Source: Bacteroidota bacterium (GTDB lineage: Bacteria; Bacteroidota; Bacteroidia; J057; JADKCL01). Taken from it: 64,000 nucleotides of DNA. Below are positions 9,193 through 47,994 of this stretch, piece by piece. A program made the position numbers and the translations under genes. How positions within the stretch are numbered: the first letter of the stretch is position 1; each line of letters opens with the position of its first letter. Location of the stretch: contig JBCCQH010000027.1 in NCBI GenBank assembly GCA_039024435.1, positions 1,963 through 65,962 of the forward strand. Reading direction: 5' to 3'. Under the pieces are notes generated by a model. It had not been told where the DNA came from. It did no database searches and saw only the letters and a list, made by a program, of their open reading frames with translations.

Positions 9193-9207
9193 AGATAATG
9201 ATCATGC

Positions 9208-10897: not shown

Positions 10898-10904
10898 GTA
10901 CTTT

Positions 10905-12677: not shown

Positions 12678-12792
12678 AAGACGTTGCTTATAAGGCTCTG
12701 GTAGTCCCTCGTCGGTCATCCCGACGACTGGGACAAGGTCAGGAACCCGCCTCACTTGACCAAACAAAAGAACTGACATTTCTAGCTATTCA

Positions 12793-12906
12793 CGCCAATT
12801 TGGCAGCGGCCCGAAACCGAATTGGCGCCATTTTGGCAGTAATAATTTGTGGGTGGCGCCATTTTGGCAGCTTTTGGCACGAAAAATCGACTGGCACGGG
12901 AATTGA
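12793..12906 (+). promoter_or_regulatory. tandem repeats plus sigma-54-like -24/-12 element upstream of the hsp20 gene
   Basis: Three copies of CGCCA(A/T)TTTGGCAG lie at 12793, 12826 and 12857; two carry the palindrome TGGCGCCA. TGGCAC-N5-TTGA follows at 12892-12906, with GG-to-GA spacing equal to the TGGCAC-N5-TTGC consensus and the -12 GC degraded to GA. Confidence 0.3.
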
Positions 12907-12964
12907 AAGCAATGGAGCGTAATCAAAATCCAAAATTGAACGAAAACTTAAAACCGATACAAAA

Positions 12965-31942: not shown

Positions 31943-33448
31943 TTAACGGATCAAGTCTGCGATCTGCCGGCCCAGCAGCTTGCTCTTGGTCCAGTAAAGG
32001 ACTTCCTCCATTCCTGGCCGCAGCTTTTGGGCCGACATTTGTTCCAACTCGTCGTGGAGTTGGCGGATGACGTTGTGCCGGGCTTTGGGGTCGCCGCGCT
32101 GCATCAGGCGGACCATTCCGTTTAGCACGCTCCGCGCAAAGGAGCGGGCCAGTCCCTTTTTGCGCAACCATTCGGCCCCAGCCTTCGCGCGGGAAATCAG
32201 GTGCTCGTAATCGCCGTCGTCCACCAACTCATAGGCGGTAACCACCGAAAATATCCGGGCCAAGCCTTGCAGGTCCACCCGCTGTTGGGTCAAAGGGTGC
32301 CGTTGCAATTGTTCGGCCCAGTGATTCGCCTGGCGAAAATCACCCGCCCAAAAGTGCGTCAGCAGCAGATTTGCCTGGAAGCCCAGCCGGGTCGAATCTA
32401 CGAGCTTGGTCCCGTAGCGGTCCAGCTTTTCCGGCACCGTCGCCATGAGCGCCAGGGCGTCATCGAGCCGCCGTTCATTCAGCGCGAGCAGGTGCCGGTA
32501 AAACAATCCCACCGAAAAGGCTTCGATTTCGTCTTCCTCACTCTCTACCGGTAGACTTTCCAATCGGTCCAGCACCGGGGCAAAAGCATCGTACCGAGAA
32601 TTGTTCGCCGCGCAGTGCAGGAAATTGCAGAGGAAAAGCCGGAACTCAGGGTACAACTCCTCCTGCTGGTGGGGATGCGCCTCCCAATGGGCCAGCAACT
32701 GGCGGTAGGCGGTAAATTCCTGCTCCCGCTGCTCGTGAAAACCCAGGAGAAAACAGCGCGATTGCAGGTAGAGCCGGCGCGCGGTGAATCCCGCGGGCCG
32801 GTAGTCGGGCTGCAGCGCAGGATGCTGGGCCACCGCTTCGATTTCGCGGAGGTGCTCGGCCGAAAGCTGGCTGAGGTTGAGGCGGATGTAGATGCCCAGC
32901 CGGTCGTAGAGTACTTCCTGTTGTTCCCGTTCTTCCCGGCGCGCCTTCAAGGCAGTTTGGGTGCTCAGCAGGTCCGCGAGGGCCTGCTGAAATTTTTTGC
33001 GCTGGTACAGCTTCAGGATGTTCCGTTCCAAGCGGTTGAGCTGCAATTGCAGGTCGATGAATTCGTACTCGTCCGCGATCTTGTGCGCCGTGCGGAGTTC
33101 CTTGCGGGCTGCGGAGACGATTCCGCGTTGGTGCAGGAGGTGCGCCCGGTCGAGGCACCGCCGGCACTGGTCGTACTTGTGATTTTCCGGAGCGTAAATC
33201 AGCAGGAAGTCATTCAGCAGATTCCAAAGGTAATTCTTCGCCGCGGCAAAACTGCGGTCTTCGAATTCGTCGGCGACCGCCGCTTTCAGCGCCTTTTCGT
33301 CGTAGTGTGACTGGCGCTGCATCTTGGTAAAGAGCAGCCAGTACTTTTTTTCTCCGTCGCGGTATTTCTGCGTGTACAGCCGAAAGTTCCGTTTCTCCGA
33401 ACGGCTCATCCGCTGAATCAATTGAAATAAATCGTCACTTGGCTTCAT
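31943..33448 (-). CDS. hypothetical all-alpha (TPR-like) protein
   Basis: 501-aa ORF with helical-repeat composition. N-terminus: LFQLIQRMSRSEKRNFRLY. No catalytic motif recognised. Transcribed divergently from the pAgo operon. Confidence 0.5.
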   Translation of the reverse strand: MKPSDDLFQLIQRMSRSEKRNFRLYTQKYRDGEKKYWLLFTKMQRQSHYDEKALKAAVADEFEDRSFAAAKNYLWNLLNDFLLIYAPENHKYDQCRRCLDRAHLLHQRGIVSAARKELRTAHKIADEYEFIDLQLQLNRLERNILKLYQRKKFQQALADLLSTQTALKARREEREQQEVLYDRLGIYIRLNLSQLSAEHLREIEAVAQHPALQPDYRPAGFTARRLYLQSRCFLLGFHEQREQEFTAYRQLLAHWEAHPHQQEELYPEFRLFLCNFLHCAANNSRYDAFAPVLDRLESLPVESEEDEIEAFSVGLFYRHLLALNERRLDDALALMATVPEKLDRYGTKLVDSTRLGFQANLLLTHFWAGDFRQANHWAEQLQRHPLTQQRVDLQGLARIFSVVTAYELVDDGDYEHLISRAKAGAEWLRKKGLARSFARSVLNGMVRLMQRGDPKARHNVIRQLHDELEQMSAQKLRPGMEEVLYWTKSKLLGRQIADLIR

Positions 33449-33650
33449 CTTTTTATCTCAAAAAAGCAAAATTTTGTTTCTCTCTGAACCTCTATTGATC
33501 TCTTCCGGAATATCCGCAATTCTGAGATAAAACGTGCGGTTTCCCCCCAAATTCTTGTCCGTGAACTTCTGATAATCCCAAAAAAATCTGGTGGTCTGCC
33601 GGATCCTTTTCCCGCTACTTGCCGGCAGTTAAACCACAAAAAATACCATT

Positions 33651-34079
33651 ATGTCTGACACGTATTCCATTTCCAACCACCAGCCCCAGTTCAATGCGGA
33701 CTTCAGCGAGTTGGAGATCCACAACCTCACCACGGGAACCATCGAAGAAACCTACGATCTCACCCAATCCACCAAAGTATCGGTCACCTCGGGCAATTAT
33801 GTCGTCGACCAAAATACCTGTACCGGGTGCTTCTCCCAATCTTTTGACGCGGACGAACAGGAAACGGTCTCGTTCAGCGGGGCCCGCATGGCCGGCGTGA
33901 CCATCATGCGACTGGAAGGAACGCTCAAGCCCCATTTAGAGTACGACTTTGATCTGGATGCCTGTCCGGTGTACCTGAAGTACGACGGCGACAAGCTCAA
34001 GGTCGAGGCCTCCCAGGACAGCGGTGGAGCCGGGTTTGATCCTTGCTGCGTGACCATTCGCCAGCTCACTTCTGCCTGA
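33651..34079 (+). CDS. hypothetical 142-aa protein, first gene of the pAgo operon
   Basis: ATG start, with the stop 6 nt before the next ATG. Beta-rich composition with several Cys (CTGC, DACP, DPCC). No family recognised. Confidence 0.5.
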   Translation: MSDTYSISNHQPQFNADFSELEIHNLTTGTIEETYDLTQSTKVSVTSGNYVVDQNTCTGCFSQSFDADEQETVSFSGARMAGVTIMRLEGTLKPHLEYDFDLDACPVYLKYDGDKLKVEASQDSGGAGFDPCCVTIRQLTSA

Positions 34080-34085
34080 TCGCCG

Positions 34086-35201
34086 ATGCTTCCGGAAAAT
34101 CCATCCTTGTCGACGATCTCGGAAGTGGCGGTTCTCCAGGTCCGCACCCCGGAGCACCCGGAGGAATTCCGCTCGGAATTCCCGGGCCTGGAGGCCGTCT
34201 TCCCGAACCCGGTCCGGGTCTATTGGCTGTTTCCGGAGATGGCGTCCCGCCCCCGGATCGCCCCGTTTTCCTGGCGGCACCTGACCATCCATCCGGTTCC
34301 CTTTCCGCGGGTGGATGCTCGGGTCCGCAGCGGGAACTGGGAGTGGCTGCAGGACCCTTTCCTGGTCGTTCCGGGAGACCGGCCCCGCTTCGTCATTCCC
34401 GCCCAAGCGACGGTCCAGGATCAACTGATCGTGACCGCGCTGGCCCGTGCCGCGGGCGCTTACGTGCGCATGGCCGGGACCTACTTTGAAGGGGGAAATC
34501 TGTTCTGGATGGGCCAGCACATCCTCGCCGGTCGCGATACCCTGCTGCACAATCCCGCACTCCTGGCGGAAGGCGACCTTTTCTCCACCCAGCGGCGAAT
34601 CGAAGCGGATTTCCGGCCGGCCGAGATCCACTGGATCGGGGATCACCTGACGCAGACCCGATCTCCCTGGCAGCCTTGTGGTGAGGCGGACAGCTTCCAA
34701 CCCTTTTTTCACCTGGATCTGTACGTGATGCCCGCCGGGAGAAACTTGCAAGGAAATGCCCGCGTTGCCGTGGCGGACCTGCCGGCCGATCTCACCGACG
34801 CCGATGGCGTCGCGGCGCAGGCGCTGGTCACCCGGTTGCGGCAGCAATTGGCCCGCACCGAGGAGCAAGTCCGCGCCTCGGCTGGCCCCGAGACCGAAGT
34901 GATCCGGGTACCCATGGTGCTGCGTTGCCACGCGTCCCAGCCCCGGGTGTTCTCCCCTTGCAATGGACTCTACGAATCCACCCCGGCGGGCGACCGGATC
35001 TTGCTTCCGGATTATGTCACCCACGCTCCGGTCCGCTACTGGCGACCGCGACTGAAAGCCCAAAAACGGCAGATTGAAGCCCTCTGGGAAGCCCGCGGGG
35101 CCAGCGTCCACTGGGTCACGGGAAACTATTTCGAGGACTCCGACAAGTGCGGGGCCTTGCACTGCCGCATCAAAATCATTCAACGTGTATCCACTTCCTG
35201 A
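34086..35201 (+). CDS. guanidino-group-modifying (pentein fold) enzyme-like protein, agmatine/peptidyl-arginine-deiminase-like
   Basis: The motif order matches the agmatine deiminase/PAD_porph layout: NWEWLQDPFLVV (W..D.GP-like), YFEGGNLFWMGQHILAGRDTLL (EGG...G), FFHLDLYV (H.D), SPCNGLY (SY.N-like), and C-terminal GALHCRIKI (GG..HC). Confidence 0.55.
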   Translation: MLPENPSLSTISEVAVLQVRTPEHPEEFRSEFPGLEAVFPNPVRVYWLFPEMASRPRIAPFSWRHLTIHPVPFPRVDARVRSGNWEWLQDPFLVVPGDRPRFVIPAQATVQDQLIVTALARAAGAYVRMAGTYFEGGNLFWMGQHILAGRDTLLHNPALLAEGDLFSTQRRIEADFRPAEIHWIGDHLTQTRSPWQPCGEADSFQPFFHLDLYVMPAGRNLQGNARVAVADLPADLTDADGVAAQALVTRLRQQLARTEEQVRASAGPETEVIRVPMVLRCHASQPRVFSPCNGLYESTPAGDRILLPDYVTHAPVRYWRPRLKAQKRQIEALWEARGASVHWVTGNYFEDSDKCGALHCRIKIIQRVSTS

Positions 35202-35203
35202 TT

Positions 35204-37054
35204 ATGAATTTGCAACAAAACTGGTTTCCCATTGTCTTCCGGGGAGATGCAATTCCCCTTTGGCAGACGGGACGGGCCAATGACCACAATGCTCCCACTC
35301 ACCGCACACTTCCAAACTGGACGGAAAATGGCAAGCAGTACTTCTGGCCCCCCGCTGGGCAGACGCTTCCCGAGGGAGGAACCCTCCAAAAACTCTCTCC
35401 GCACCTCATTCCGCAACTGACGGCGGAGATCGTCCGCTGGGCCTTGCTCCAGCTTCCCCATCCCGGTTTGGAGCGCGACGAGGACGAGATCATTTTTCCG
35501 CATCAAGGGTCCACCCTGCGCCTGGCGGTGATTCCTCCCGCCCCGCACAACACAGAATTCTGCCTGAGCATCCGCCCGGAAGATCCGCCCCCCGCCGCCA
35601 AAGAAGCTTACCGCCAAGTCCACGATGCCTTCGCCGTACTGGCGCAATCCCCCTTTACCAATGGTGCCGGCACAGAATTCACCCTGGAATCGGAGCGGGT
35701 GGAAGTCGAGTACCCCTCTTTTGCCCGCCCCCGACTCTATTTCCAGCCCAGCGGCATCGGCAATACCAATGACAAGTGGAAAGGCATCCTGAACAAAGGG
35801 CCCTTCAGCAAAGCCCACTTCCGCCACCGGGAACTGCACTGTCTGGTGATCGCCGGGGCCCGGGACGAGGGCGTGACCAAGCGGGCCCTCGGTGAACTGG
35901 AACGGGGGCTCCCGAGTGTGGACCACACCTCCGAGTTCCAGAGTCCATTCCCGAAAGGCTGGGCCGAACTCTTCCGGTTCAAAAGCTGGACCCCGTATTA
36001 CCTTTGGCTCCGCGGCCCCGCCGAGTGGGAGAATCTGGAACAACAGGTGCAGGAAGCGGTCCAGGCGCAGTGCCGGGAAGGACGGGAAGGCTTTGATCTG
36101 GCCTGGATCATGCCGCCGCGGGCCCATCGCAATGCGCCCCAGCTCATTGCCGGTGCGACGGCTACCCTGCTCGAATTTGGCATTCCGGCTCAGGTCTGGG
36201 ACCTGGATCCCTTCCGGCCCGGAGCCCCGCCCGGGAGCGCCGGCCAACGGCTGCGCGAACTCGCCCTCAAGAGCTACGTCAAGGTCGGGGGGATCCCCTG
36301 GCTGCTGCCGAGTGACCGGTCCAGCGACCGCCTCGTGGTCATCGGGGTGGGCAGCACCGAGCTTACGGAGGGTGTCGCTGGATTCTGCACCATTTTTGAA
36401 CGGGACGGGACCTTCCGCCTGGGCAATGCTTCGGCCCAGCCGAGCTTCCGGGACTGGCTGCGGGACCTGAGTGGTTTCGTCCGGGCCCAGGTGCGAAAAC
36501 TCGCCGATCAGGACAACTGGCAAGCGGGGGATCGGGTCGAGCTGGTCTTTCACCTTCCGGGGCCCGAATACTTCGGGCAGGTGGGCGCATTGCGGGAACA
36601 GTTGACCGGGGTGACCCTGGCCCAGTACCAGGTCTCGATGAGTTTTCTTGGGATCGACTACGCCCACCGGGACCGCCTCTGGGACTTGGAACGCCGGGGA
36701 CGGGGCGCAGAAAGCCGGGCCGCCTACATTCCCAAAATCGGTCAGGCCAGCATCGGCGGAGAAGAAGCCTGGTTGCAGTTGCGCGGAATCGAGCACGAGC
36801 GGGCCGAGGATCCCCCCTTGCGGATCTTGCTCCATCCCGACTCGGAAAACCTGGACCTCACCGAATTCACCCACCAGATATTCCGCTTTGCCGCCTTGTC
36901 CTGGCGCACCTACGGCCTGGAAGATCTGCCCGCGACGCTGGCCTACGGCAATGCCCTCACCGACCTGCTTTACCGCATCCACCAAGCGGGGCGCAGTACC
37001 GAGGTCGCCCGCGCCCTCCACAACTTTCCCCACCTCAAAACCTGGTTCCTATGA
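35204..37054 (+). CDS. short prokaryotic Argonaute (MID-PIWI), predicted catalytically inactive
   Basis: PIWI blocks: LKSYVKVGGIPWLL (36281-36301 encodes KVGGIPW), VVIGVGS, VFHLPGPEYFGQ, YAHRDRLWD, LPATLAYGNALTDL. The DEDX positions read G, L and N. The ATG lies 2 nt after the upstream stop. Confidence 0.8.
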   Translation: MNLQQNWFPIVFRGDAIPLWQTGRANDHNAPTHRTLPNWTENGKQYFWPPAGQTLPEGGTLQKLSPHLIPQLTAEIVRWALLQLPHPGLERDEDEIIFPHQGSTLRLAVIPPAPHNTEFCLSIRPEDPPPAAKEAYRQVHDAFAVLAQSPFTNGAGTEFTLESERVEVEYPSFARPRLYFQPSGIGNTNDKWKGILNKGPFSKAHFRHRELHCLVIAGARDEGVTKRALGELERGLPSVDHTSEFQSPFPKGWAELFRFKSWTPYYLWLRGPAEWENLEQQVQEAVQAQCREGREGFDLAWIMPPRAHRNAPQLIAGATATLLEFGIPAQVWDLDPFRPGAPPGSAGQRLRELALKSYVKVGGIPWLLPSDRSSDRLVVIGVGSTELTEGVAGFCTIFERDGTFRLGNASAQPSFRDWLRDLSGFVRAQVRKLADQDNWQAGDRVELVFHLPGPEYFGQVGALREQLTGVTLAQYQVSMSFLGIDYAHRDRLWDLERRGRGAESRAAYIPKIGQASIGGEEAWLQLRGIEHERAEDPPLRILLHPDSENLDLTEFTHQIFRFAALSWRTYGLEDLPATLAYGNALTDLLYRIHQAGRSTEVARALHNFPHLKTWFL

Positions 37055-38061
37055 TTTTGATCCCCGATTTTTTCGCCCGGACCGCGGTATTCTTGGAAGG
37101 AACCCATCCGGTGCAGCAAGCATTTCTCCACCATTTGTTCCCGGAATCGGTGCCCTTTCCCCACGCCACTGCCCCCGGCGCCATCAAAGGCAACAATGCC
37201 GACTACCCCAAAGTGGCCCTGCTCGGTTTCTGGTCCCTCTTCGCGCCGGAGTTTGCCGCGCGCTTTCGGGTGGCCTTCTCGCGCTACCGCTTCCGCAAGC
37301 TCGAAAGTGAGCACTACATCCTCGAAGATCTGGCCGCCCTGATCGGGATCTCCCAAGGTTTGCGGAAACACGGTGGCCCGGAAGACCACAAGTGGTGGAT
37401 CCGGCAAGTGGAACTCTGGCAACTGGCCTTTCCGGAAATGGAGGAAGTGCGGCAGTTCATCCGCTACCTCACCCAGGGAGGACTCCCGCCGGCCGGCCGC
37501 ATTTCACCGACCTACCTCGTCTACCTCGTGGTTCAGGAGCAGGACTGGAATCCGCAGTTTGCCGAGGTTGTGAGGCGATTTTACCTGCGCACCCGGAAGT
37601 TGCCGATGCCCGGGCCGGATGATCACTTTGGGCAAACGATGCTCAACCACTACGGTCTGGATGCCTGTTTCCGGCGCTGTATCTGGGAAGAAGACAAGAT
37701 CCTCACCTTGCAGCAAGCCGCGGTGGCCGGGGTTCACCACCGGGTAGAGGCCCGGGCCGTACGCCGGGCCAAGCGCCTGGTCGCCGCCGCTTACCTCCTG
37801 GGCATCCCCGGAATCGCGCTCTGCAACATCGCCTTCTTCTCGAATCTGGACGCGTTTGCCGAGTGGCGGAACCTTTGGGATGTCGCCGAAGACACCTTGC
37901 TTTTCGCCGGAGGCCCCTTTTCCGCCGCCTTGCTGTTCGTAAATGTGCTTTTGCAACTGGCGGGCCGCCACCCCCTTTCCCTCAAGTACGCCGGTCTGAC
38001 CCGGAGCCTGGCCGCCCGACTCACCAAACGGCACAAGCACCGCCTGGGCCTCGCCGGATAA
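37051..38061 (+). CDS. pAgo-associated protein with C-terminal two-TM hairpin
   Basis: ATGA overlap with the pAgo stop. The ~240-aa N-terminal domain is soluble. TM1 is LVAAAYLLGIPGIALCNIAFF (37777-37839) and TM2 is TLLFAGGPFSAALLFVNVLLQLA (37894-37962). The tail RLTKRHKHRLGLAG is basic. Confidence 0.6.
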   Translation: MILIPDFFARTAVFLEGTHPVQQAFLHHLFPESVPFPHATAPGAIKGNNADYPKVALLGFWSLFAPEFAARFRVAFSRYRFRKLESEHYILEDLAALIGISQGLRKHGGPEDHKWWIRQVELWQLAFPEMEEVRQFIRYLTQGGLPPAGRISPTYLVYLVVQEQDWNPQFAEVVRRFYLRTRKLPMPGPDDHFGQTMLNHYGLDACFRRCIWEEDKILTLQQAAVAGVHHRVEARAVRRAKRLVAAAYLLGIPGIALCNIAFFSNLDAFAEWRNLWDVAEDTLLFAGGPFSAALLFVNVLLQLAGRHPLSLKYAGLTRSLAARLTKRHKHRLGLAG

Positions 38062-38175
38062 TCCGCCGGTTCCCCGTTGATCCACCGAATCCTTCCCGGT
38101 GACCGCCTCGGTCGCCCCCAATCCCCATGTCTTTTCACCTCCAAAATTCCGGGCACAGGCCCGGACCGGAAACCT

Positions 38176-39246
38176 ATGTCATTTACCGTTAAAACATTCA
38201 CTTTGAAGCCCTTGAGAGCCGAACAACGCGAACACTTGGTGCGTCCATTTATGCGCTGGGTCGGAGGAAAGCAACGATTGGTCGGACAGTTGTTGAATTA
38301 TCTCCCTCCGGAGGACACCTATTCCCGCTACTACGAATTGTTCCTCGGGGCTGGATCCTTGTTCCTGGCCCGGAACTTCCCCAATCCGGTCCTGAACGAC
38401 CTCAATTTCCACCTGATCAATACCTACCAGCAGGTGCGCTCCCGTCCGGAAGCGGTTCACCGTTTGATCACGGAGCACGCCCGCCAACTCACCCGGGACC
38501 ACCGCCGCAACTTCGGCGGAGATTGGGAAAACTACCGGGGCAAGCGGGGCCGAGGCTCCTACTACTACACGGTCCGGGATGCCTACAACGCCCACCTTGA
38601 ACTGCCGGACGATATTTTTGATCCCGAACGTCTGCGGCAGGCGGCGCGTTTCCTCTTCCTGATCCATTCCAATTACAACGGCCTCTTCCGCGTGAACCAG
38701 CGGGGCGCTTACAATGTCCCCTTCGGCAAAAAACTGACCCACGTGCCGGACCTGGAACAACTCAATCGGATCAGCGCCCGGCTCCAAAACGCCCGGCTCA
38801 CCAATCACAGCTTTGAAGAACTGGAACCGGAAATCGGGGCTGGCGCCTTTGTCTACCTGGATCCTCCGTACCCGGATTTGCAGCCCCAGGATCTTTTTCA
38901 CCAGACAAACCGGTCCCAGAAAGCTTCCTTTACCGCGTACAATGCCCCGCCTTTTGAAACTCCGGAACACCAACAACTCGCCGCTTTTGCCGACCGCATC
39001 CGCCGGCGTGGGGCCAAAGTCATGGTGTCTATCGTGGAGCCTTTTGGCGTCCACAAAGCGGATCCCCGTCGAACCATGTTGCGGGAGTGGTATCCCGAAG
39101 CCCACTGGTGCTACCACCGAACGAAGTTCAAGCGCACCCTCGGTCCCCGCAAGGATCCCCAATTGGTACACGAGCTCATTCTCACCTCCTACGAGACGAA
39201 AAAGTGCCGCCCCGGTCACAAACTCAAAAGAAACCGCCGAAAATGA
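38176..39246 (+). CDS. Dam-family (D12 class) N6-adenine DNA methyltransferase
   Basis: Contains RWVGGKQRL, ELFLGAGSLF, NDLNFHLINTY, FRVNQRGAYNVPFG, and YLDPPYP (DPPY at 38860-38871). Start chosen at the internal ATG at 38176. Confidence 0.85.
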   Translation: MSFTVKTFTLKPLRAEQREHLVRPFMRWVGGKQRLVGQLLNYLPPEDTYSRYYELFLGAGSLFLARNFPNPVLNDLNFHLINTYQQVRSRPEAVHRLITEHARQLTRDHRRNFGGDWENYRGKRGRGSYYYTVRDAYNAHLELPDDIFDPERLRQAARFLFLIHSNYNGLFRVNQRGAYNVPFGKKLTHVPDLEQLNRISARLQNARLTNHSFEELEPEIGAGAFVYLDPPYPDLQPQDLFHQTNRSQKASFTAYNAPPFETPEHQQLAAFADRIRRRGAKVMVSIVEPFGVHKADPRRTMLREWYPEAHWCYHRTKFKRTLGPRKDPQLVHELILTSYETKKCRPGHKLKRNRRK

Positions 39247-41774
39247 ACTACTGGAAATGGAACACCGCCCTCGGGGATTTCTTTTTCCGGAATTCCCGCA
39301 AAGGCCAGCGCATCCTGTTTTACCTGGACCGCAAACTCATCGACCGGATCGGACAGGAACAAGGTCTCCCCGGCTGGGAAGATTTCTGCGCCAGCGTCCG
39401 CCAGGGTCCGCTGGAAGCATCCTGGCCCCACTACCTGCCGGAACTCGTGCAAGTGTGGTCCGATGGTCCCGAGTTTCACTACCCCTTTTTCCTGAATGGG
39501 ATTGCGGCCCTCATCCTGGCCCACACCGAACGCCCGCATCCCGATATGGGCTATTATGAATCCCTGGCCCATTTCGGGAAGCACCACCTGCATTCCACTG
39601 CCGATGCCCGGTCTGTGGTCCCACCGCTGGTCAATGCCTTTGCCCACATCCGGGAGTGGTCGGAAGCCTGGCCGGAAGTCCCCGGAACCTTCATCGACGA
39701 ACCGATCCAGGAGTACCGCTACGTGGGCCGCATCCGCCACCACGCCCTGATCTCCCCGGCCGAACGCCGCAATCTCCACCTGATCTGGCGGGACCTCACC
39801 CTAGAACCGGGACAGGGTCCCCACCTCGAATGGCTGATCTATACGCTGGAGCAGCACCCCGAATCGGCGAGCTGGATTCCGGGAATGCTGACCTTGTTCG
39901 GGCACCGCAGTCCTGAGGTACGGAAGGTGGTCCACCACTGGCTGCTGGAAGAACTGCGCACTTGGGATGGCAGTGCCCCGCCGACGCCCCAGTTGTACGA
40001 GCCGCCTTTTGAGGAAGGATTTGCCCTGCGGATGTCTTGGAGTCGCCGGGTGGGGATGGGCCTGCGCTTGCACCACCCCGACTGGAGCGGAGAGGTAACC
40101 CTGCGCCGGAAAGAAGCCCAAATCACCCTGCAAATCGGGGCGGATGGCTGGTCCCGGAACTTTACCTTTCCCGGAGGTGGAATAAATTTTACCGCGGAGG
40201 CCCCGGAGATCCGGGTACAAATGATCCAGCCCGTCCCGCGGGAGCTGTCGGCGTCTGTGTTTTCCTACTACTACCCCGCCGATGCCCTGGGCACCCTGGG
40301 ATCGGATTACATCGGGCACGACCGGATGCTCCGGGAACGGCCGCTGCAGCACTGCTTTCCGGCGCGTGAGCTGGCGTCCTGGCGGCAGTGGGCAAAAGAA
40401 CACCGGGTAGAAAACTGGCGGGCAAAAGAAGCTCCGGCGGGATTTCCTCCCGGCTGGAAATTCTACGCTGCCGAGCAGATTCCCCCGCCGGAAACTTCTC
40501 CTGGCGCACACCTGCCCCGGGTTCGGCCCCCGGCTCCGCTGAGCAAAGTATTTCCGCTTTCGGCCGCGCACCGCACGCAACAGTGGCAGTATGCCGCGGA
40601 TGGTCGCCGCTTGTCGCCTCCGGAAAGTGGAATCGGCCATTTCTTCCTGGATGGAGTAGAGCACCGGTGCGTGGCAACTTGCGAATGGACCCTGGACCTC
40701 TCGGGCAAAGCGGATCCGCCCCCACCGGAAGCGGATCGGCTGGCCCCTCTGCTGGCGAAAAGGCAGGCGGTTATCCCCTTTCGGCAGTACTACGATCTAT
40801 TGCAAGCGATTGCGGCGGAGCGGGGCGAGTCCCTGGACACCGTCGAAGCGCGCTACTACCGGCGCCTGACGGCGGCTTTGGGGTATTTTTTCGAAGATTC
40901 CCCCCGGCAGCAATTGCAACTGGCCCCCCCGGCGTTTGCCCTGTTGCCGGACAATCACCACGCAATCCGGGCTTCGCTCACCGGGATCTGGACGGCGGAC
41001 TTGCGGAACATCGTGGTACAATGGTGCCAGGATCCGGCGCACGGACTTCAATTGGCGTGGGAGGAATCTACTGATCCCTACCTGCCCGCCGCCGGGTTCC
41101 TTACTTGTTTCCGCTTGGACTACCTGGTCGCCTTGCACGCCGAATTGGAGCGCCGCTTTCCGGGGGTGGTCGGTCGGTGGACCCCTTGTTCCTATTCCCA
41201 AGCCCTGATCGAACGGCTCACCGTGCCGCGCCACCGCGGCTGGTTCAGCGAAGCGGAGGGATTGCGGAAACAAGTGGGTTCACCGGAAGCCCATTTCCTT
41301 TCCCCGGAAGACTACCGCTTCATCCCCCAAACGGGCGCGCCCATCTTCCCGATGCTCACCCGCAGCTACCACGAATGGTACGGCTACCCGATTTATACCT
41401 GGTGGGAAAGTGAGCAACAAGGTCACGACTGCAACGGCAACTGGGCGGTTTGGCGGCTGCTCCACGCCCATGGGGTTCCGGTCCTGTTCTCGGATCACCG
41501 CTGGAGCGACCACCTGTTGCTTCCGGTCCACTTGCCGCTGCCGGCGCTGGTGCGGCGGGCCCTCACCATGGCTTCTGGACTTCCGGGGAGTCCGGAAACC
41601 CATCCGCTTCCCGGCGGGCCGGAGCTGACCTGGCAACGCTACCCCAACATTCGCTACCCGATTCGGCGCCACCTGCCGCGTTTGCTTCTGGGCGCCACCG
41701 GTGTTTCCGCCCCTGAGTCGTTTTTCCACCGTCTCCATCCCCAACCGCACAACCATGGACCAATTAATCAGTAA
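39243..41774 (+). CDS. hypothetical 843-aa protein (position-equivalent to Druantia DruH or DISARM DrmE; no motif recognised)
   Basis: ATGA overlap with the methyltransferase stop and a 20-nt overlap with the downstream helicase start. Composition is coding-like. No domain recognised by eye. Confidence 0.45.
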   Translation: MNYWKWNTALGDFFFRNSRKGQRILFYLDRKLIDRIGQEQGLPGWEDFCASVRQGPLEASWPHYLPELVQVWSDGPEFHYPFFLNGIAALILAHTERPHPDMGYYESLAHFGKHHLHSTADARSVVPPLVNAFAHIREWSEAWPEVPGTFIDEPIQEYRYVGRIRHHALISPAERRNLHLIWRDLTLEPGQGPHLEWLIYTLEQHPESASWIPGMLTLFGHRSPEVRKVVHHWLLEELRTWDGSAPPTPQLYEPPFEEGFALRMSWSRRVGMGLRLHHPDWSGEVTLRRKEAQITLQIGADGWSRNFTFPGGGINFTAEAPEIRVQMIQPVPRELSASVFSYYYPADALGTLGSDYIGHDRMLRERPLQHCFPARELASWRQWAKEHRVENWRAKEAPAGFPPGWKFYAAEQIPPPETSPGAHLPRVRPPAPLSKVFPLSAAHRTQQWQYAADGRRLSPPESGIGHFFLDGVEHRCVATCEWTLDLSGKADPPPPEADRLAPLLAKRQAVIPFRQYYDLLQAIAAERGESLDTVEARYYRRLTAALGYFFEDSPRQQLQLAPPAFALLPDNHHAIRASLTGIWTADLRNIVVQWCQDPAHGLQLAWEESTDPYLPAAGFLTCFRLDYLVALHAELERRFPGVVGRWTPCSYSQALIERLTVPRHRGWFSEAEGLRKQVGSPEAHFLSPEDYRFIPQTGAPIFPMLTRSYHEWYGYPIYTWWESEQQGHDCNGNWAVWRLLHAHGVPVLFSDHRWSDHLLLPVHLPLPALVRRALTMASGLPGSPETHPLPGGPELTWQRYPNIRYPIRRHLPRLLLGATGVSAPESFFHRLHPQPHNHGPINQ

Positions 41775-44700
41775 AGAACCGATTTCCGCTTTTGAAGCCA
41801 TCCGGGACAAATTCATCTTGTACCTGCAGACCGCTTACCGGACCCGCTTCCGGTCCCTCGAACAGGAAAAGGAAGCCCTGCTGAAGCAGGCGCCCAACCT
41901 GTTTCAGTGGCCCTATGTGGAATTACAGCCAGACTACGCTTCTTCGGGAAAAAAGATCCCTGAACTCAGCCTCGAAGATCTGCCCGCGCTGGGAGCGTTG
42001 CTGGACCGGTTCAAGCTTCTAGTGGGCGGCAATCTCTTTTCGAACAAATACGCCCTCTACACCCACCAGTACGAGATGCTGTGTACCGCCCTGAGCGGTC
42101 GCCACAGCCTGATCACCTCGGGCACGGGCTCCGGAAAAACCGAATCGTTTTTGCTGCCCCTGGTGGCCCAGTTGGTGAAGGAGTCGGGTCACTGGGGACC
42201 GATCAACCGCCACGAACTGGGGGACCGGTCCTGGTACGAGCAAGAAGGGGCAACGGCCCGGGCCCATCCCTACCGCGCCCACGAAACCCGTCCCGCCGCA
42301 GTCCGGGCCTTGGTGGTCTACCCGATGAATGCCTTGGTGGAAGACCAGCTCACCCGCCTGCGCAAGGCCCTGGACGGTCCCCGGGTGTGGGACATCTACG
42401 ACGATCCGGAAGGATTTGCCGGGAACCGCATCTACTTCGGACGCTACATCGGGCCGACGCCGGTCTCCGGAACCGAAGAGCCAGAAACCACCGGCGACTC
42501 TGGAGATGCTACCCGGCAGGTCAACCGCAAGTCAAAGTCATTTGCCAACCGCAGCCGCATCCAGGCGATGCGCAGCGATTACGAAAAGATCACGACTTTT
42601 CTCAGTCAGGAATTTATCCCCGAAACCCTGCGGGACGAGGACATCCAATTCACCGTGCCGGCTTTTCCCGAGTGCCGCCAGGGGGTGGAGCTTCCGGTCA
42701 GTGCAGAAATGCGCACCCGGTGGGACATGCAGGCCACGCCCCCCGATATCCTGATCACCAACTTTTCCATGTTGAGCATCATGCTGATGCGGGCGGTTGA
42801 AGCGCCGATCTGGTCCCAGACCCAGGCCTGGTTTCACGGGGAAGACCTCACGGACCGCGATGCGCTTTCCCGGGAAGTCGTCCTCCAGGACCGCATCTTC
42901 CACGTCATCATCGATGAGCTGCACTTGTACCGCAATTCCGAGGGCATGGAAGATGCGGCCCTGCTGCGGAGTCTGCTCCTGAGCCTCAACATGATCGATG
43001 CCGACGGCCAACTGCATCCCCGGGTCCGGATCCTCACCTCGAGTGCTTCCCTGGGCGACGGCCAAGAAACCCAAGACTTCCTCGCGAAGTTTTTTGGGGT
43101 ATTTGCCTCCGGAGAGGCGAAAACTCCGGCTTTTTCGGTCATCAACGGTGATTCGCGCCCATTTGACCGGGAGGTCCCCGCAACGATGCCCCACGCCGAA
43201 GAACTGGTGCGCCTGGCGGAACTGCCCGGATTTCCCGAGCCCGATCCCGGAGAGGTCGCGGATATTTTGCGGAAAATGGTCGCGTCGCCGGTGGATCACG
43301 CTGCTTCGGGTCCGGAATTGATTCGGATCTGGTACGCCGAACACCAACTGAAAGACCGCATCAAGGCGACCTTTCAACGGCATCCCCGACGGGAAGATGA
43401 GCCGGCGACCATTCCCCGGAGCGTAGAAGTGCTGGGTCAAAAGTGGTTTCCGAAGCTTGCTGATTTCGCAGCGATCAAGGCCCTGAAGGCATTTTTCTAC
43501 CTCCGGGGACGCCTGCACGACCGCGAATACCCCAGCCTGCGGTTCCACTACTTCTTCAAGTTCATCCAGGGACTTTGGGCGGAAGCCCAACCCAATCGCG
43601 GGACCAAGCCCGAACCGGGCCACCACCTCAAGGAGCAGAAGCCGGTCGGGCAACTCTCCTACACCCCGCGCCAACTGGCCCCGGGGAGCAACAACCGGAT
43701 GTTTGACTTTTTGCGCTGCGAAGTCTGCGGTACGGTATTCCTCGGCGGACAAAAGAAATACATCTCCCCGAACAACCACGCCGAGTGCCAGGTCACCATT
43801 TCCAGTCCCGATCTCGAAAGCCCCCTGGGCAATCTCCCCACGATATCCCGCCAAAACTACCTCGATTACGCAGTGTTTTGGCCATTTTCGGATGCCCTCG
43901 ACGATGAGGTCGATTCCCAAAAGCCCTACCTCAAGCGGGACATCCCCATGGACTGGAACCAGCGGATCCCCAACTCGGGCAAGCGCGACCGGGGCACCTG
44001 GGTAAAGGCCAGCCTCAATACCGAGCTGGGGATCCTAAGCGAGGGCACAGCAATCGGCGATGCGTACGCCAATGGCTACTGGTTCCAAGTGCGACGCATA
44101 AAGAATGGGGCGCTCGTCCACCAGCGGGATCCTATGAAAATAGCACTGCACGCTGCCTTGCCCAACGCCTGTCCCTGTTGCAAGCAGAATTGGGGCAATC
44201 GCCAGTTTGTGAAATCTCCCATCCGGTCTTTTCGCACGGGTTTTGGCAAGATGAATCAGGTTTTGCTCAAGGAGCTGGCCTACCAGCTCGACCACGATCC
44301 CGACCAGGGACACTTCCGCAAGCTGGTGGCCTTTTCCGACTCCCGGGAAGATGCAGCCCGCCTGGCGTTTGACATCGAAAACCAGCATTTTCTGAATGTG
44401 GTGGAGGAGTACATGATGGAAATCTTCCAGCACCACCGGAAGGAAGAACAGGTAGAAGAAGAGCAGTTGCGCGGCATCCGCAAGCGGCAAATCGAGATGC
44501 TGGACCGCCTGCAGCGGGAGGAGGATGGCCCGGAAATCAAGGAATGGGCGCAAGCAAATCCCGACGCCTACCGGGAGGTCGCACAACTCCACAATTGGAG
44601 CAAAAGTTTCCTCGAAGAAGAGCAGGCCCAAGCCCAAGCCCAACGGGAAAAGTGGCAGCGCAAGGTGGATGGGCCCATTGAAGAGGTGCGGGTGGTGCCG

Positions 44701-47700
44701 GCCTGGAAATTGCTGGGCAAAGCGGGCAATACCACCGAGATGGGGCTGCTGATCGTGCGCTTGCTCCAGAAGGGAATCAATCCCGCCGGGGCCGATTCCC
44801 ACGCCCAGTTCCACCAGGGATTTCCCTGGTATGAGTTCCTGAAAGTGGACCTCAGCAACGAACAGTTTGCCTGGAAAACCCCCGAGGAGATGGACCTGCG
44901 CACCGGGGAGGAGGACGTGATTCAGGAGTTTCAAAAAAAGGTCATCCGCAAACTGCGCGACTCGATCAGCGATGTGTTCTTCTCGAAGTTGGTGTACAGC
45001 CTGGAAGCGGCGGGGCAGGGCTATGCCTGCGTAAAGGCCGATCCGGATGAGCTGGAAACACATTTCCAAAGCTACGGCGACACGAAGGTGGCGGGCGAAT
45101 TGCTGTATCAGTTTCTCAATGCGACGATCCGGGTGCTGGGCAACAATTTCAAGTACGAGATGGCAAGTTCGCGCTACGCACCGAATGTCCTGCCTTTTGA
45201 TGCGCAAAACGATTGGGGCAAACAGGTGGAACGTTACCTGGCGCAGGCGGCGGAGGTGCTGCAAGTGGAAGATCCCCGGGTGCTGAAGCAGTTCTTTCTC
45301 GACCAGGCCCGGAAACAAAAAGTGCTCAAGGAATACCGCCCTTCTCGGGAAGGCTCCCAGGCGGGGGAAAGTTCGGGCTACTTGCTCTCACCGGATGACC
45401 TGCACCTGTACCTGGCCGAGCCACCGGATCCGGTGTGGCGTTGCGGCAAGTGCCAGCGCGATCACTTGCACCCATCGGCGGGGGTCTGTACGTTTTGTTT
45501 TTCGCCCTTGGCGGCGGAGCCCACTCCCGAACTCAGCAGCCGCAAGCTGGCGGTGCAGAATTACATTTCCCATCCCATCGTCCACCGGCGGGAGCCCATC
45601 CGAATCCACTGCGAAGAATTGAGTGGGCAAACCGACGATCCCACCGCCCGCCAGATCGAGTTCAAGGGGGTCTTTCCGGAGGAGAACGAGCAAAAGTACC
45701 GGGTGGCGCGGCAGTTCCGGGAGATCGACGTGCTCAGCGTGACCACCACCATGGAAGTCGGGGTGGACATCGGGTCGCTGCAGGCGGTGTACCAGGCAAA
45801 TATGCCGCCGACCCGCTACAACTACCAGCAGCGTGTGGGCCGCGGCGGGCGCAGTGGACAGGCGTTCAGTGTGGCCTTGACGCTGTGCCGGGGACGCAGC
45901 CACGACCAGTACTATTTTGAAAATGGCCTGCACCGCATCACCGGAGATCCCGCGCCGCCGCCCAAGTTGTCTTTTCGCTACGAAGTCATTCGCCGGAGCA
46001 TCACCAAGCACGTCCTGCGCCTGGCGTTTGCTCACCTGAAGACGGAGCACGAAGTCGCGCTGTCGTCCTCCCACAAGGACATGCACGGCGAGTTTGGCAG
46101 CCTGGGCGATTGGGTGGGAGGCACCAATTTCGTCGAGCAGTTGCGCGCCTGGTTGGGCGGTGACCGCTGTACCGGCGAAGTCCGCAAGATGTGGAAGGCG
46201 CTGGTCCCCCCGGATTCTGACCTCACGGACAAGGTGGGCGACTACCTGAACTGGCTCCGCTACGCGGAAAGCGGCTTGGTCGACCAGATCGATCAGGCCA
46301 TTCGCAAAGACCTGGATATTCAACCCCACGAAACCCTCCAGGACCTCCGACGGGAGAACCAGCCCAAGGGACAGCTTCGTTTGTCCGAGCGCCTGTCCGA
46401 GTATGGTTTCCTCCCCGCCTACGGCATGCCGAGCAACGTGCGGAGCTTTTTTCACGGGAGTAAAAAAGGGGAGATGCTATCGATTGATCGGGACCTCGAA
46501 CTGGCGATATTTGAGTTTTCGCCCGGTGCAGTGCGCACCAAGGACAAGGCCGAGTACCAGGTCGCGGGCCTCAGCTACCCGATGTACTTCGGCAAACAAC
46601 GGAAGCGAAACCAATACCCCTTTCTCCCCGCTGATCCCAATGATCGCTCGGCGATCATCGACCAGATCAATGCTTTTCCGGTGATGCGCTGCAAGGAATG
46701 CGGCAAAATCCACGGGCGCGCGGAAATCGAGGCCCAGGAATACGCCTGCGATTGTGGCCGCACCGATGAGGCAAGCCATTTTGACGACTTCACGATTGTC
46801 ATTCCCAAGGCGTTCCGGGCGACCTATCTCGGCACCCAAAATGGCAAAACGGTCAAGCAGGAAGATTCCCGGTTTGCCTCGGCGGGATCGGTGACCATTG
46901 CCCAACCGCACAACCTGGAGGAGGTGCCACTGCTGGAGCAAAATGTCAAGCTGGAATTTTCCGACAGCCACCGGGAGCACCCCAGTTTTGTCTGGAAACT
47001 CAACACCAATGGCGGCAACTACTTCCGGGGCCACCTGTACGATGACGGTGAACTGGTCAATCAGTGGTTCCCGGAAAATATGCAACCCAGATCGGCCCAA
47101 CTGAGCAAAGAAAAAGCCCCGGAAAACATCGCTTTGGGAATGAAGAAGGTGACCGATTTGTTGTTCATTTCGCCGCGGGAGATTCCCGCGGGACTCAAGT
47201 TGCAGCCTCCCGGCAAAACCGAGGATCCGCAAGTCATTGCCCTCAATACGGCCCGGCAGGCGGCGGTCCTCTCCGGAGCGTACATCCTGCAGAAGGTGTT
47301 TGCCGAGCGGATGGACATTGCCCCGGAGGAGATCGAGATTCCCCAATTGGATTTTGACGGCGCGCATCCCCGGATTGTGCTGGCGGACAAGCTCGCCAAT
47401 GGGGCCGGCTTCGTCGCCGAGCTCAAGGACAACTTTGGGCGGATCCTCACCGCGGCGATCGATGCCGGGCCGGGGACTTTTCTCAGTCATGCATTGGCGC
47501 ACGCCACGGGGCCCGATGCATGTGTTTCGAGTTGTCCGCAGTGCTTGCAGACCTACCTCAACCGGCAGGTCCACCACTTGCTGGACTGGCGGCTGGGGAT
47601 TTCTTATCTGCGCTTGCTGGCCCAAGGCGAGAAATTTGATGCCCACCTGGGGTTTGCTTCGTGGGAGAACGAAGCGTATCCCGAAATCACCGACTATTTC

Positions 47701-47994
47701 CGCCTGGCGGATGAATTTGCCGAGCGCATCGTCAAGTGGACCCACGAAAGCTACGCCCGGGTGGAGCAAGCGGGCCTGCACCTGCCGGTGCTTCTCAGCA
47801 AGGGCCCAGGGTTGCCGCGGGCCATCTTGTTGGTGCATCCGTTTTGGGATTTGGACCGTCCGGGGGAGGTGCTTGAGGGGGCGATTCAGCTTGCGCTGGA
47901 CCACACGGAGAAGCGGGCGCACTTGCGGTTTTTGGACGTGTTCAATCTGGTGCGCCGCCCGGCTTGGGTCAAGCAGTTCCTGATCGATGATTGA
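41755..47994 (+). CDS. 2079-aa SF2 (DEAD/DEAH-like) helicase with C-terminal DUF1998-like zinc domain; DruE-like or fused DrmA-DrmB-like
   Basis: Motif I TSGTGSGKTE (42121-42141), motif II IIDELHLY (DELH at 42913-42924), SSASLG, motifs V/VI VTTTMEVGVDIG ... QQRVGRGGRSGQ. Several Cys4 ribbons are present (CEVCG, CPCC, CGKC..CTFC, CKECG..CDCG). The C-terminal CVSSCPQCLQTYLNRQVHHLLDW is DUF1998-like. Confidence 0.75.
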   Translation: MDQLISKEPISAFEAIRDKFILYLQTAYRTRFRSLEQEKEALLKQAPNLFQWPYVELQPDYASSGKKIPELSLEDLPALGALLDRFKLLVGGNLFSNKYALYTHQYEMLCTALSGRHSLITSGTGSGKTESFLLPLVAQLVKESGHWGPINRHELGDRSWYEQEGATARAHPYRAHETRPAAVRALVVYPMNALVEDQLTRLRKALDGPRVWDIYDDPEGFAGNRIYFGRYIGPTPVSGTEEPETTGDSGDATRQVNRKSKSFANRSRIQAMRSDYEKITTFLSQEFIPETLRDEDIQFTVPAFPECRQGVELPVSAEMRTRWDMQATPPDILITNFSMLSIMLMRAVEAPIWSQTQAWFHGEDLTDRDALSREVVLQDRIFHVIIDELHLYRNSEGMEDAALLRSLLLSLNMIDADGQLHPRVRILTSSASLGDGQETQDFLAKFFGVFASGEAKTPAFSVINGDSRPFDREVPATMPHAEELVRLAELPGFPEPDPGEVADILRKMVASPVDHAASGPELIRIWYAEHQLKDRIKATFQRHPRREDEPATIPRSVEVLGQKWFPKLADFAAIKALKAFFYLRGRLHDREYPSLRFHYFFKFIQGLWAEAQPNRGTKPEPGHHLKEQKPVGQLSYTPRQLAPGSNNRMFDFLRCEVCGTVFLGGQKKYISPNNHAECQVTISSPDLESPLGNLPTISRQNYLDYAVFWPFSDALDDEVDSQKPYLKRDIPMDWNQRIPNSGKRDRGTWVKASLNTELGILSEGTAIGDAYANGYWFQVRRIKNGALVHQRDPMKIALHAALPNACPCCKQNWGNRQFVKSPIRSFRTGFGKMNQVLLKELAYQLDHDPDQGHFRKLVAFSDSREDAARLAFDIENQHFLNVVEEYMMEIFQHHRKEEQVEEEQLRGIRKRQIEMLDRLQREEDGPEIKEWAQANPDAYREVAQLHNWSKSFLEEEQAQAQAQREKWQRKVDGPIEEVRVVPAWKLLGKAGNTTEMGLLIVRLLQKGINPAGADSHAQFHQGFPWYEFLKVDLSNEQFAWKTPEEMDLRTGEEDVIQEFQKKVIRKLRDSISDVFFSKLVYSLEAAGQGYACVKADPDELETHFQSYGDTKVAGELLYQFLNATIRVLGNNFKYEMASSRYAPNVLPFDAQNDWGKQVERYLAQAAEVLQVEDPRVLKQFFLDQARKQKVLKEYRPSREGSQAGESSGYLLSPDDLHLYLAEPPDPVWRCGKCQRDHLHPSAGVCTFCFSPLAAEPTPELSSRKLAVQNYISHPIVHRREPIRIHCEELSGQTDDPTARQIEFKGVFPEENEQKYRVARQFREIDVLSVTTTMEVGVDIGSLQAVYQANMPPTRYNYQQRVGRGGRSGQAFSVALTLCRGRSHDQYYFENGLHRITGDPAPPPKLSFRYEVIRRSITKHVLRLAFAHLKTEHEVALSSSHKDMHGEFGSLGDWVGGTNFVEQLRAWLGGDRCTGEVRKMWKALVPPDSDLTDKVGDYLNWLRYAESGLVDQIDQAIRKDLDIQPHETLQDLRRENQPKGQLRLSERLSEYGFLPAYGMPSNVRSFFHGSKKGEMLSIDRDLELAIFEFSPGAVRTKDKAEYQVAGLSYPMYFGKQRKRNQYPFLPADPNDRSAIIDQINAFPVMRCKECGKIHGRAEIEAQEYACDCGRTDEASHFDDFTIVIPKAFRATYLGTQNGKTVKQEDSRFASAGSVTIAQPHNLEEVPLLEQNVKLEFSDSHREHPSFVWKLNTNGGNYFRGHLYDDGELVNQWFPENMQPRSAQLSKEKAPENIALGMKKVTDLLFISPREIPAGLKLQPPGKTEDPQVIALNTARQAAVLSGAYILQKVFAERMDIAPEEIEIPQLDFDGAHPRIVLADKLANGAGFVAELKDNFGRILTAAIDAGPGTFLSHALAHATGPDACVSSCPQCLQTYLNRQVHHLLDWRLGISYLRLLAQGEKFDAHLGFASWENEAYPEITDYFRLADEFAERIVKWTHESYARVEQAGLHLPVLLSKGPGLPRAILLVHPFWDLDRPGEVLEGAIQLALDHTEKRAHLRFLDVFNLVRRPAWVKQFLIDD

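Follow-up and report, generated by a model that had tools for sequence, protein, structure and literature searches.

The open reading frame (ORF) at positions 34086-35201 (plus strand) of a 64,000-nucleotide (nt) stretch of DNA from a Bacteroidota bacterium (GenBank assembly GCA_039024435.1, contig JBCCQH010000027.1, positions 1,963 to 65,962; hereafter, the window) encodes a protein that, as judged from sequence profiles and a structure model, is soluble, has the guanidino-group-modifying (pentein) fold, and forms a deep branch near the PAD_porph/agmatine deiminases. Within a compact four-gene unit, the enzyme gene comes second and directly precedes the gene of a prokaryotic Argonaute (pAgo), and a RusR-like gene is divergent from the unit. 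We favor the reading that the enzyme cassette may be a module of conflict (immune) systems that has been recruited by different sensors, and we hold this reading with slightly less than even confidence.

Fold, family and catalytic residues of the enzyme

The enzyme gene runs from an ATG start to a TGA stop codon and specifies 371 amino acids (aa) with a pI of 6.9; hydropathy analysis predicted no transmembrane segment. The motif coordinates that a preliminary description had read from the sequence were all borne out on this ORF, namely, NWEWLQDPF (residues 84-92, nt 34335-34361), F-E-G-G-N (residues 134-138, nt 34485-34499), H209-L-D211 (nt 34710-34718), SPCNGLY (residues 290-296), and GALHC (residues 356-360), in which Cys360 is encoded at 35163-35165. 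Long antisense ORFs lie opposite the enzyme (33936-35183, minus strand, 415 aa) and pAgo (35180-37033, minus strand, 617 aa), and the high G+C content probably accounts for them. We take the plus-strand enzyme frame as the real one because it has homologues with invariant motifs and encodes a confident fold.

Close homologues of the enzyme are few: an index of 5.8 billion proteins held only five (52-99% identity), all of which keep the motifs, and the 99%-identical one comes from a Bacteroidota metagenome-assembled genome. A profile search of 1.84 billion representatives extended the family to 390 relatives at E ≤ 1e-3 (128 at E ≤ 1e-10), whose common core covers residues 86-368 and ends in the signature G[SA]LHCxTK[VI]LxR. 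An alignment of 84 family sequences was the base for the profile, invariant-column, and final AlphaFold2 results. Searched against the PDB, this 84-sequence profile matched the agmatine deiminase 1xkn at 7.8e-9, along with 3hvm, 2cmu, and 6b10, and in the 1xkn-type alignment W87xxD90, the GG of EGG, N293 (SYxNF), and GxxHC fell on the deiminase motifs. A six-sequence profile returned only noise from the PDB, and a search for further homologous proteins with the 84-sequence profile gave only 11 matches. Taken singly, 39/84 relatives matched PF04371 (PAD_porph) at E ≤ 1, with a best value of 3.5e-11, and 9/84 weakly matched PF03068 (PAD). Consistently, hhalign paired the enzyme family with a PF04371-annotated protein (probability 98%, E 2.9e-13), placing FHLD opposite HID, and one relative carries the Joint Genome Institute (JGI) name "agmatine/peptidylarginine deiminase". 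Since the window enzyme itself does not match PF04371 whereas 39/84 of its relatives do, we regard it as a related outlier and not as a clear PF04371 member.

The AlphaFold2 model computed from the 84 sequences reached a predicted local distance difference test (pLDDT) score of 94.2 and a predicted template modeling (pTM) score of 0.92. Foldseek comparison of this model with the PDB yielded 50 matches at E < 1e-3, every one of them a guanidino-modifying enzyme. The best were the agmatine deiminases 2jer, 1zbr, 1xkn, and 6b10 (~2e-11, template modeling [TM] score 0.55-0.65), PPAD scored 0.5-0.58, and further matches comprised DDAH-1, PAD1/2/3, the amidinotransferases SxtG and HsvA, and ArgZ. 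A first AlphaFold2 run on six sequences had a pLDDT of only 59, although its fold matches, eIF6 among them, already pointed toward penteins. The pentein fold claimed in the preliminary description is thus upheld by the AlphaFold2/Foldseek results, the 1xkn profile match, and the hhalign comparison with PF04371: a significant match to pentein families was found once the family profile was used (1xkn, 7.8e-9), and the predicted model, at a pLDDT of 94, matches solely members of this five-fold propeller superfamily in the PDB.

Compared with the characterized PAD_porph/agmatine deiminases (PF04371; 2jer, 1xkn, 1zbr, 6b10, 3h7c; PPAD, 4ytb/5ak7), the enzyme is predicted to have the same five-bladed propeller (TM score 0.5-0.65), a similar size (~330-370 aa), the WxxD, GG, HxD, N, and GxxHC motifs in unchanged order, and the same pentad of polar residues. 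However, it is only 10-15% identical to them, misses the Pfam model, and bears its own C-terminal signature. PPAD also has a secretion signal and Ig-like and C-terminal (CTD) domains; the enzyme is without these, as judged by inspection of its N terminus and by the propeller filling the chain. The PADs of PF03068 belong to the same superfamily but to another family, and the enzyme family aligns better with PF04371. A Streptomyces member of PF03068 makes citrulassin, a case of cytoplasmic peptide citrullination by an enzyme encoded away from its substrate, and the PF03068 PADs keep the residues by which the calcium-dependent human PADs bind Ca, with 42-47% similarity to the latter (bioRxiv 10.1101/2020.07.16.207027).

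As for viruses, no enzyme relatives were found among IMG/VR viral contigs. The only structural relatives in BFVD were amidinotransferase-like phage proteins, from Campylobacter phage CP20 (6.6e-6) and an uncultured Caudovirales phage (8.5e-5); thus, phages too carry pentein-fold enzymes.

Six columns are invariant in the 84-sequence alignment: D90, G149, H209, D211, N293, and C360. Residue counts were taken from 57 genome-derived relatives with 20-55% overall identity. D90, H209, and D211 are each present in 57/57 of these, as are G136, G137, and N138, and N293 and C360 each occur in 55/57. The four exceptions at the latter two positions consist of three alignment gaps, which may reflect contig or ORF truncation, and one Cys in place of N293 (locus L044). 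In PPAD, the five polar residues that guanidino-modifying enzymes strictly conserve are Asp130, His236, Asp238, Asn297, and Cys351, of which both Asp residues bind the guanidinium, the Cys is the nucleophile toward C-zeta, and the His serves as acid/base (PMC4893104); the PAD4 counterparts are D350, H471, D473, and C645 (bioRxiv 10.1101/2020.07.16.207027). D90, H209, D211, N293, and C360 follow the order of the PPAD pentad and of the PAD4 residues, and we consider them the candidate catalytic residues of what we infer to be an active Cys-hydrolase.

The retention of the Cys nucleophile and the His, put forward in the preliminary description, holds across the family (C360 in 55/57 and H209 in 57/57 relatives). 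Two of the motifs it emphasized need correction. Glu135 of EGG is variable (Q in 24/57, E in 22/57), the conserved unit being G-G-N, and Cys292 of SPCNGLY is replaced by N in 44/57, the conserved residue being the adjacent Asn293. The C-terminal G-x-HC motif stands in part, since Cys360 is kept in 55/57 but His359 is R or N in 9/57. Relatives with Asn or Arg at this His (GSLNC, GALRC) include P0036, P0049, P0053, and P0056, among others, all with an intact pentad, and those with the replacement may be a subfamily whose chemistry or substrate has changed. Moreover, PPAD Arg152/Arg154, which bind the C-terminal carboxylate of its substrate, have no counterpart in the enzyme: by offset after the first Asp, a positional match, the corresponding residues are Q111-D112-Q113, which are invariant in the close clade of the enzyme. 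The enzyme substrate is therefore not predictable from PPAD.

Genes that accompany the enzyme

The four-gene unit (33651-38061) consists of the genes for a small acidic protein, the enzyme, pAgo, and a transmembrane protein, with successive spacings of 6, 2, and -4 nt. A scan found no plus-strand terminator-like site between 33651 and 38061; the accompanying sigma-70 promoter scan is uninformative for Bacteroidota, and only its terminator result was used. The pAgo ATG (35204) lies 2 nt past the enzyme stop codon, and in orthologous loci the two genes are separated by 5, 11, or 71 nt or overlap by 4 nt.

Scanning 185,579 species genomes with a 16-sequence alignment identified 52 loci. The four diverged enzyme homologues (52-55% identity) all sit in the same gene block with differing flanks. 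More specifically, loci L001 and L006 have all nine block genes through DruE, and L004 is without a Pfam call only for the 849-aa gene at the DruF position. Comparable block genes have diverged alike (38-68% identity). The pAgo, transmembrane protein, methyltransferase, and DruF genes recur solely in the clade of the window and in L009, the enzyme of which is only 25% identical to the window enzyme, with the pAgo arrangement kept. Likewise, the pAgo subclade is represented in the protein index by the same clusters only, five in number, to which L009 is added, and the enzyme gene is directly upstream in 6/6 of these lineages. This link is strict and close and persists down to 25% enzyme identity, which speaks for function rather than accident.

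The pAgo (35204-37054, plus strand, 616 aa) belongs to the long-B group and is shortened N-terminally. It was called by PADLOC as pAgo_II (9.2e-65), with the model matched only from position 248 of 724; its best PDB relatives are RsAgo (1.7e-27, query 179-593 to 311-757) and EcAgo (3.8e-24), and its score against NCBIfam ProtArgonAgoRhdb (6e-30) is below the cutoff. The full N-L1-PAZ-L2-MID-PIWI architecture is absent, as the alignment begins at residue ~161-179 of pAgo versus 272-344 in the structures. At 616 aa versus 731-791 aa for RsAgo/EcAgo, the protein is ~120-160 aa shorter N-terminally. Within residues 1-178 (35204-35740), the first 130-180 residues are unaligned and stand in place of ~250-310 N-L1-PAZ residues of RsAgo/EcAgo.

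The last gene of the unit (37051-38061, plus strand) has a 4-nt overlap with the pAgo stop and encodes a 336-aa protein with two predicted C-terminal transmembrane helices (~242-264 and 282-303), the hydropathy of which is kept in five orthologues. PADLOC matched residues 18-120 to Aga_Helical-REase (7.6e-6), and a PDB search gave no relative. In the BPAM system, described with an Elizabethkingia model system, a long-B pAgo is followed by the transmembrane protein bAgaM (Song et al. 2023, PMC10620215). The window likewise has an RsAgo/EcAgo-like pAgo followed by an overlapping transmembrane-protein gene in a Bacteroidota host, and by this arrangement the 336-aa protein is a probable, BPAM-like membrane effector of pAgo, likened to bAgaM (og_100) by its position and helices. 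In contrast to BPAM, which has two to three genes, the window operon has four, is led by the small protein and enzyme genes, and is followed by Druantia-like genes; its pAgo is also N-terminally shorter. Just downstream of pAgo, five distant loci had a weak homologue of the transmembrane protein (among the best 80 of 138 found in a metagenome scan).

The first gene of the unit (33651-34079, plus strand) encodes a 142-aa acidic protein (pI 4.2) and ends 6 nt before the enzyme, of which it is a constant upstream partner. It is present in the window, L001, L004 to L006, L008 (twice), L009, L010, and L016, and a 152-171-aa form occurs in L011 to L015 (hhalign probability 94.5%, E 7.8e-8) and in L053; with this form included, the small protein is directly upstream of the enzyme in 14 distinct loci. 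Pfam and PDB searches gave no assignment. Two ideas about it were set aside: it is unlikely to be a conserved Arg-bearing substrate, because no Arg is conserved in it, and hhalign (probability 0.1%) rejected it as an N-terminal domain that had split off from the longer outgroup enzymes.

Divergent from the unit, the gene at 31943-33448 (minus strand) encodes a 501-aa helical protein related to NCBIfam NF058569 (BT2802). The match spans positions 1-497 of 502 at E 9.5e-27, and its 94 bits, against a cutoff of 550, do not pass the model; 20/20 orthologues of the gene also match NF058569 (best 6.3e-52). By these comparisons, it is a RusR homologue but of a distinct subfamily. With Pfam it gave only weak TPR matches and with the PDB nothing. 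The gene adjoins the enzyme in 21/58 fetched loci (19 after removal of duplicate records). BT2802 is RusR, a protein proposed to activate transcription of the ribose-utilization locus of Bacteroides thetaiotaomicron; when it is deleted, only ~10% of ribose-induced transcription remains (bioRxiv 10.1101/574913). Because of its homology to RusR, we read the 501-aa protein as a likely transcriptional regulator of the enzyme/pAgo operon. Like that of RusR, with which it is homologous end to end, its gene lies just upstream of those that it presumably controls; unlike RusR, it scores far below the model cutoff, and its neighbors do not form a sugar-utilization locus.

Between the two transcription units lies an AT-rich divergent promoter region of ~200 bp (33449-33650) with blocks conserved in five orthologous intergenic regions. 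A conserved non-coding block at ~33560-33600 reads TGAACTTCTGATAATCCC...TCTGGTGG and contains invariant columns (e.g., TGAAyTyC..A.AAT....A.AA..CTGGTGG), although the flanking proteins are only ~50% identical. The RusR-like regulator may use this block as its operator or promoter. A short motif repeated within the region did not reach significance by itself.

A second type of association was found in the sister clade. The trio of RusR-like, small protein, and enzyme genes is followed by same-strand NARF and SMODS genes in L008 (two copies in tandem), L010, and L016, and PADLOC annotated a "Cyclase" of the cyclic-oligonucleotide-based antiphage signaling system (CBASS) type (7.8e-34), an IetA-like ATPase, and the Mokosh proteins MkoA (1.3e-119) and MkoB in this clade. 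In L008, each of the two tandem modules (3242-13121) precedes a SMODS/cyclase gene, and MkoA- and MkoB-like genes come after them. In a neighbor-joining tree, the enzymes linked to the 501-aa gene form one clade except for those of L019 and L038, with pAgo-linked, cyclase-linked, and stand-alone subclades, and more distant family members (in Kocuria, Pontibacter, Microcoleus, Rhizobium, and others) each occur as a lone gene, with surroundings that differ. The RusR-like/small protein/enzyme trio is the older and wider unit, which the pAgo-transmembrane pair has joined in one subclade only. Two further loci carry peptidase genes nearby. In L019 (4979-9216), a subtilase (Peptidase_S8, 1.3e-45) lies between the RusR-like gene and the enzyme, in the usual place of the small protein, and in L055 (9458-17672), a C25 (gingipain-family) peptidase gene lies 1.2 kb from the pair, which may recall the gingipain-PPAD partnership or may be due to chance.

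Possible roles of the enzyme cassette

On the preferred reading, that of a module of conflict systems, the enzyme would convert a guanidino (or amidino) group hydrolytically into a ureido (or amide) group with release of ammonia, through a covalent thiouronium intermediate on Cys360, with D90 and D211 holding the guanidinium and H209 acting as acid/base. The substrate could be protein arginine, free arginine or agmatine, or another guanidino or amidino compound. The enzyme would work with the small acidic protein or be restrained by it, and both would be expressed under the RusR-like regulator along with pAgo. As sensors, pAgo in the window and a CBASS-type cyclase in the sister clade would each have recruited the module, and the enzyme would serve as a second enzymatic arm or a conditioning enzyme, being neither the sole effector of pAgo nor a polyamine-pathway enzyme.

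Several points weigh against this reading. The functional links all rest on guilt by association across ~19 non-redundant loci, and the joinings of immune genes to the trio perhaps amount to two independent events. The trio also occurs away from nearby immune genes, standing alone between ECF sigma/anti-sigma genes and panC/glmS in L011 to L015 and beside aspS in L055, so that a housekeeping role under a nutrient-type regulator is possible. The enzyme, small protein, and 501-aa genes were found in 0/80 distant pAgo loci (21-28% identity; the best 80 of 138 in the metagenome scan), and pAgo in the window already has a transmembrane partner. The enzyme has no extra domain, its propeller spanning the whole chain in the AlphaFold2 model, and thus offers nothing to dock on pAgo or to bind a second messenger. 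As a single sequence, it matched nothing in Pfam (even at E ≤ 0.1), the PDB, PADLOC, or NCBIfam. In addition, motifs of the family itself served as the seed of the genome scan, which so left out relatives that had lost them, ORFs in the fetched loci were called by a crude longest-ORF rule before hidden Markov models of the window genes were run on them, and the enzyme tree is a simple neighbor-joining tree that carries no support values.

A more ambitious proposal, which we consider doubtful, is that the small protein/enzyme pair constitutes the first pentein-fold immune effector module, released or induced by pAgo or CBASS-type cyclase sensing. By deiminating a guanidino or amidino target, it would halt either the infected cell or the invader, with the RusR-like protein as a transcriptional gate. 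Possible targets would be the free pool of arginine and agmatine; essential proteins of host or phage, through citrullination of their Arg residues; or, more speculatively, amidino-type phage DNA base modifications such as the formamidino group of 7-deazaguanine derivatives. Rather improbable, in our judgment, is a dedicated pAgo effector, in which an inactive pAgo would bind the enzyme, guide/target pairing would activate it, and deimination of proteins or arginine/agmatine depletion would arrest the infected cell, by analogy with the SIR2, TIR, and nuclease partners of short and long-B pAgos. The preliminary description had implied such a role, which is supported only in part. In its favor is the presence of the enzyme in 6/6 lineages of the pAgo subclade with tight spacing, down to a 2-nt gap or a 4-nt overlap. 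The enzyme and pAgo genes also co-diverge, and pAgo-linked enzymes are monophyletic in the neighbor-joining tree. RsAgo and EcAgo are the closest solved relatives of this pAgo, the long-B group is described as inactive and reliant on effectors (PMC10620215), and pAgo falls ~130 N-terminal residues short of these relatives, so that a partner might compensate. Against it, the constant partners of the enzyme are the small protein and the RusR-like regulator, and its clade is wider than the pAgo link and includes stand-alone and cyclase-linked loci that have no pAgo but always both of these genes. The pAgo-transmembrane pair already looks complete in the manner of BPAM, with the transmembrane effector in the canonical downstream position, and the absence of the enzyme from the 80 related pAgo loci (best 80 of 138) and of any APAZ-like or other extra domain also speaks against this role.

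Somewhat unlikely, in our estimate, is a role in regulated metabolism, with a nutrient or stress cassette, turned on by a RusR-like activator that senses a metabolite, hydrolyzing a guanidino compound for nitrogen or detoxification and with immune genes having landed behind it and borrowing its promoter, or in an island hotspot, without cross-talk. It would fit the function of RusR as an activator of a nutrient locus, the position of the trio among panC, glmS, aspS, and ECF sigma genes in L011 to L015 and L055, the agmatine deiminases as closest solved relatives, the JGI name of one relative, and the scattering of outgroup members as single genes. However, clustering of the neighbors in the 52 loci found no transporter, N-carbamoylputrescine amidase, carbamoyltransferase, or agmatine antiporter among the recurrent or adjacent genes annotated around the trio loci, and in these the polyamine neighbors of the agmatine deiminase pathway were likewise not seen. 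The enzyme does not pass the canonical agmatine-deiminase models, in two subclades different immune cassettes, two in all, have joined the 3' end of the trio in the same orientation at distances of 2-90 nt, and the pAgo link is kept down to 25% enzyme identity. We regard as quite improbable a toxin-antitoxin-like or abortive-infection pair, in which the acidic protein would neutralize a toxic deiminase and the two, acting on their own, would merely neighbor pAgo and Druantia-like genes in a defense island. The layout does resemble type II systems, with the small acidic gene first and the enzyme second at close or overlapping distance, half of the loci are inside defense-gene clusters, and the module is tandemly duplicated in L008. 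Yet Pfam and PDB searches gave the small protein no DNA-binding or known antitoxin signature, a dedicated large regulator takes the place of autoregulation, stand-alone chromosomal copies are conserved in a syntenic housekeeping context, and the tight pAgo coupling argues for more than neighborhood. Finally, it is very improbable that the protein keeps the fold as a pseudoenzyme or scaffold with a structural function only. Pentein-fold proteins without deiminase chemistry exist (e.g., eIF6), and the window enzyme passes no curated family model, but conservation of the pentad and the GGN loop in 55-57/57 relatives at 20-55% identity would be unexpected for a scaffold.

Inactive pAgos have a variety of partners, including the SIR2- or TIR-APAZ proteins of SPARSA/SPARTA, bAgaN, and bAgaS, and the partner of a short pAgo is often the upstream gene. 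The window enzyme gene is likewise co-encoded and co-inherited with a pAgo that is presumably inactive, by analogy with the long-B group. The known partners contain an APAZ or docking region and co-vary with pAgo, whereas the enzyme is a single propeller and its family is mostly unlinked to pAgo. The chemistry also differs, guanidino hydrolysis, as predicted for the enzyme, being undescribed for immune effectors in the literature searched. To our knowledge, a small acidic protein, a RusR-like regulator, pAgo, or a cyclase is not an established partner of PAD_porph/agmatine deiminases. Among 8 million full texts, no paper was found on a link between pAgo and a deiminase, between SMODS and an arginine deiminase, or between penteins and antiphage activity, in agreement with the statement in the preliminary description that no defense effector of this fold was known.

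Flanking genes and significance

Downstream of the four-gene unit, and on the same strand, lie genes assigned from Pfam and PADLOC matches to a D12 N6-adenine methyltransferase (38077-39246, after a 15-nt gap), an 845-aa DruF/DruL-like protein (~39237-41774), and a 2097-aa DruE helicase (41701-47994; PADLOC DruE2, E = 0). Their order is kept in L001, L004, and L006, and in L005 and L009 as far as the contigs reach, that of L005 ending 367 aa into the gene after DruF and that of L009 within DruF. Since this Druantia-like order is kept behind the pAgo-transmembrane pair in related lineages, pAgo and the Druantia-like genes may be one composite island or system.

The 5' edge of the block in five lineages is formed by a gene for a 553-aa "sporadically distributed" protein of DUF6119/TIGR04141 (30167-31828, plus strand; Pfam 1.8e-30, TIGR04141 3.2e-23), which holds the same position in L001, L004, L005, and L006. 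Residues 399-493 of this protein weakly match the PADLOC pAgo_I model (E 2e-4), and literature searches on DUF6119 and NARF found nothing relevant. The G+C content is 0.59-0.63 over the pAgo/Druantia part (34000-48000), compared with ~0.54-0.56 on both flanks, and the GC skew stays below zero throughout 30-44 kb of the window, which fits a horizontally acquired block. No tRNA gene was found in the 64-kb window.

The enzyme family is a new, uncharacterized branch of a known superfamily, and the operon, which occurs in a rare bacterial lineage, is a new variant of long-B pAgo systems. Even without a defense role, the present analysis newly defines a branch of the deiminase superfamily with 390 representative clusters, a Bacteroidota three-gene module of RusR-like regulator, small acidic protein, and enzyme, and a composite pAgo/transmembrane protein/Druantia-like island under a RusR-like regulator. 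Inactive Argonautes fight invaders through partner effectors such as nucleases, NADases, and membrane proteins. If the enzyme acts in defense, arginine or guanidino deimination would be a new chemistry for bacterial immunity, and it would echo the PAD-driven citrullination of animal innate immunity.

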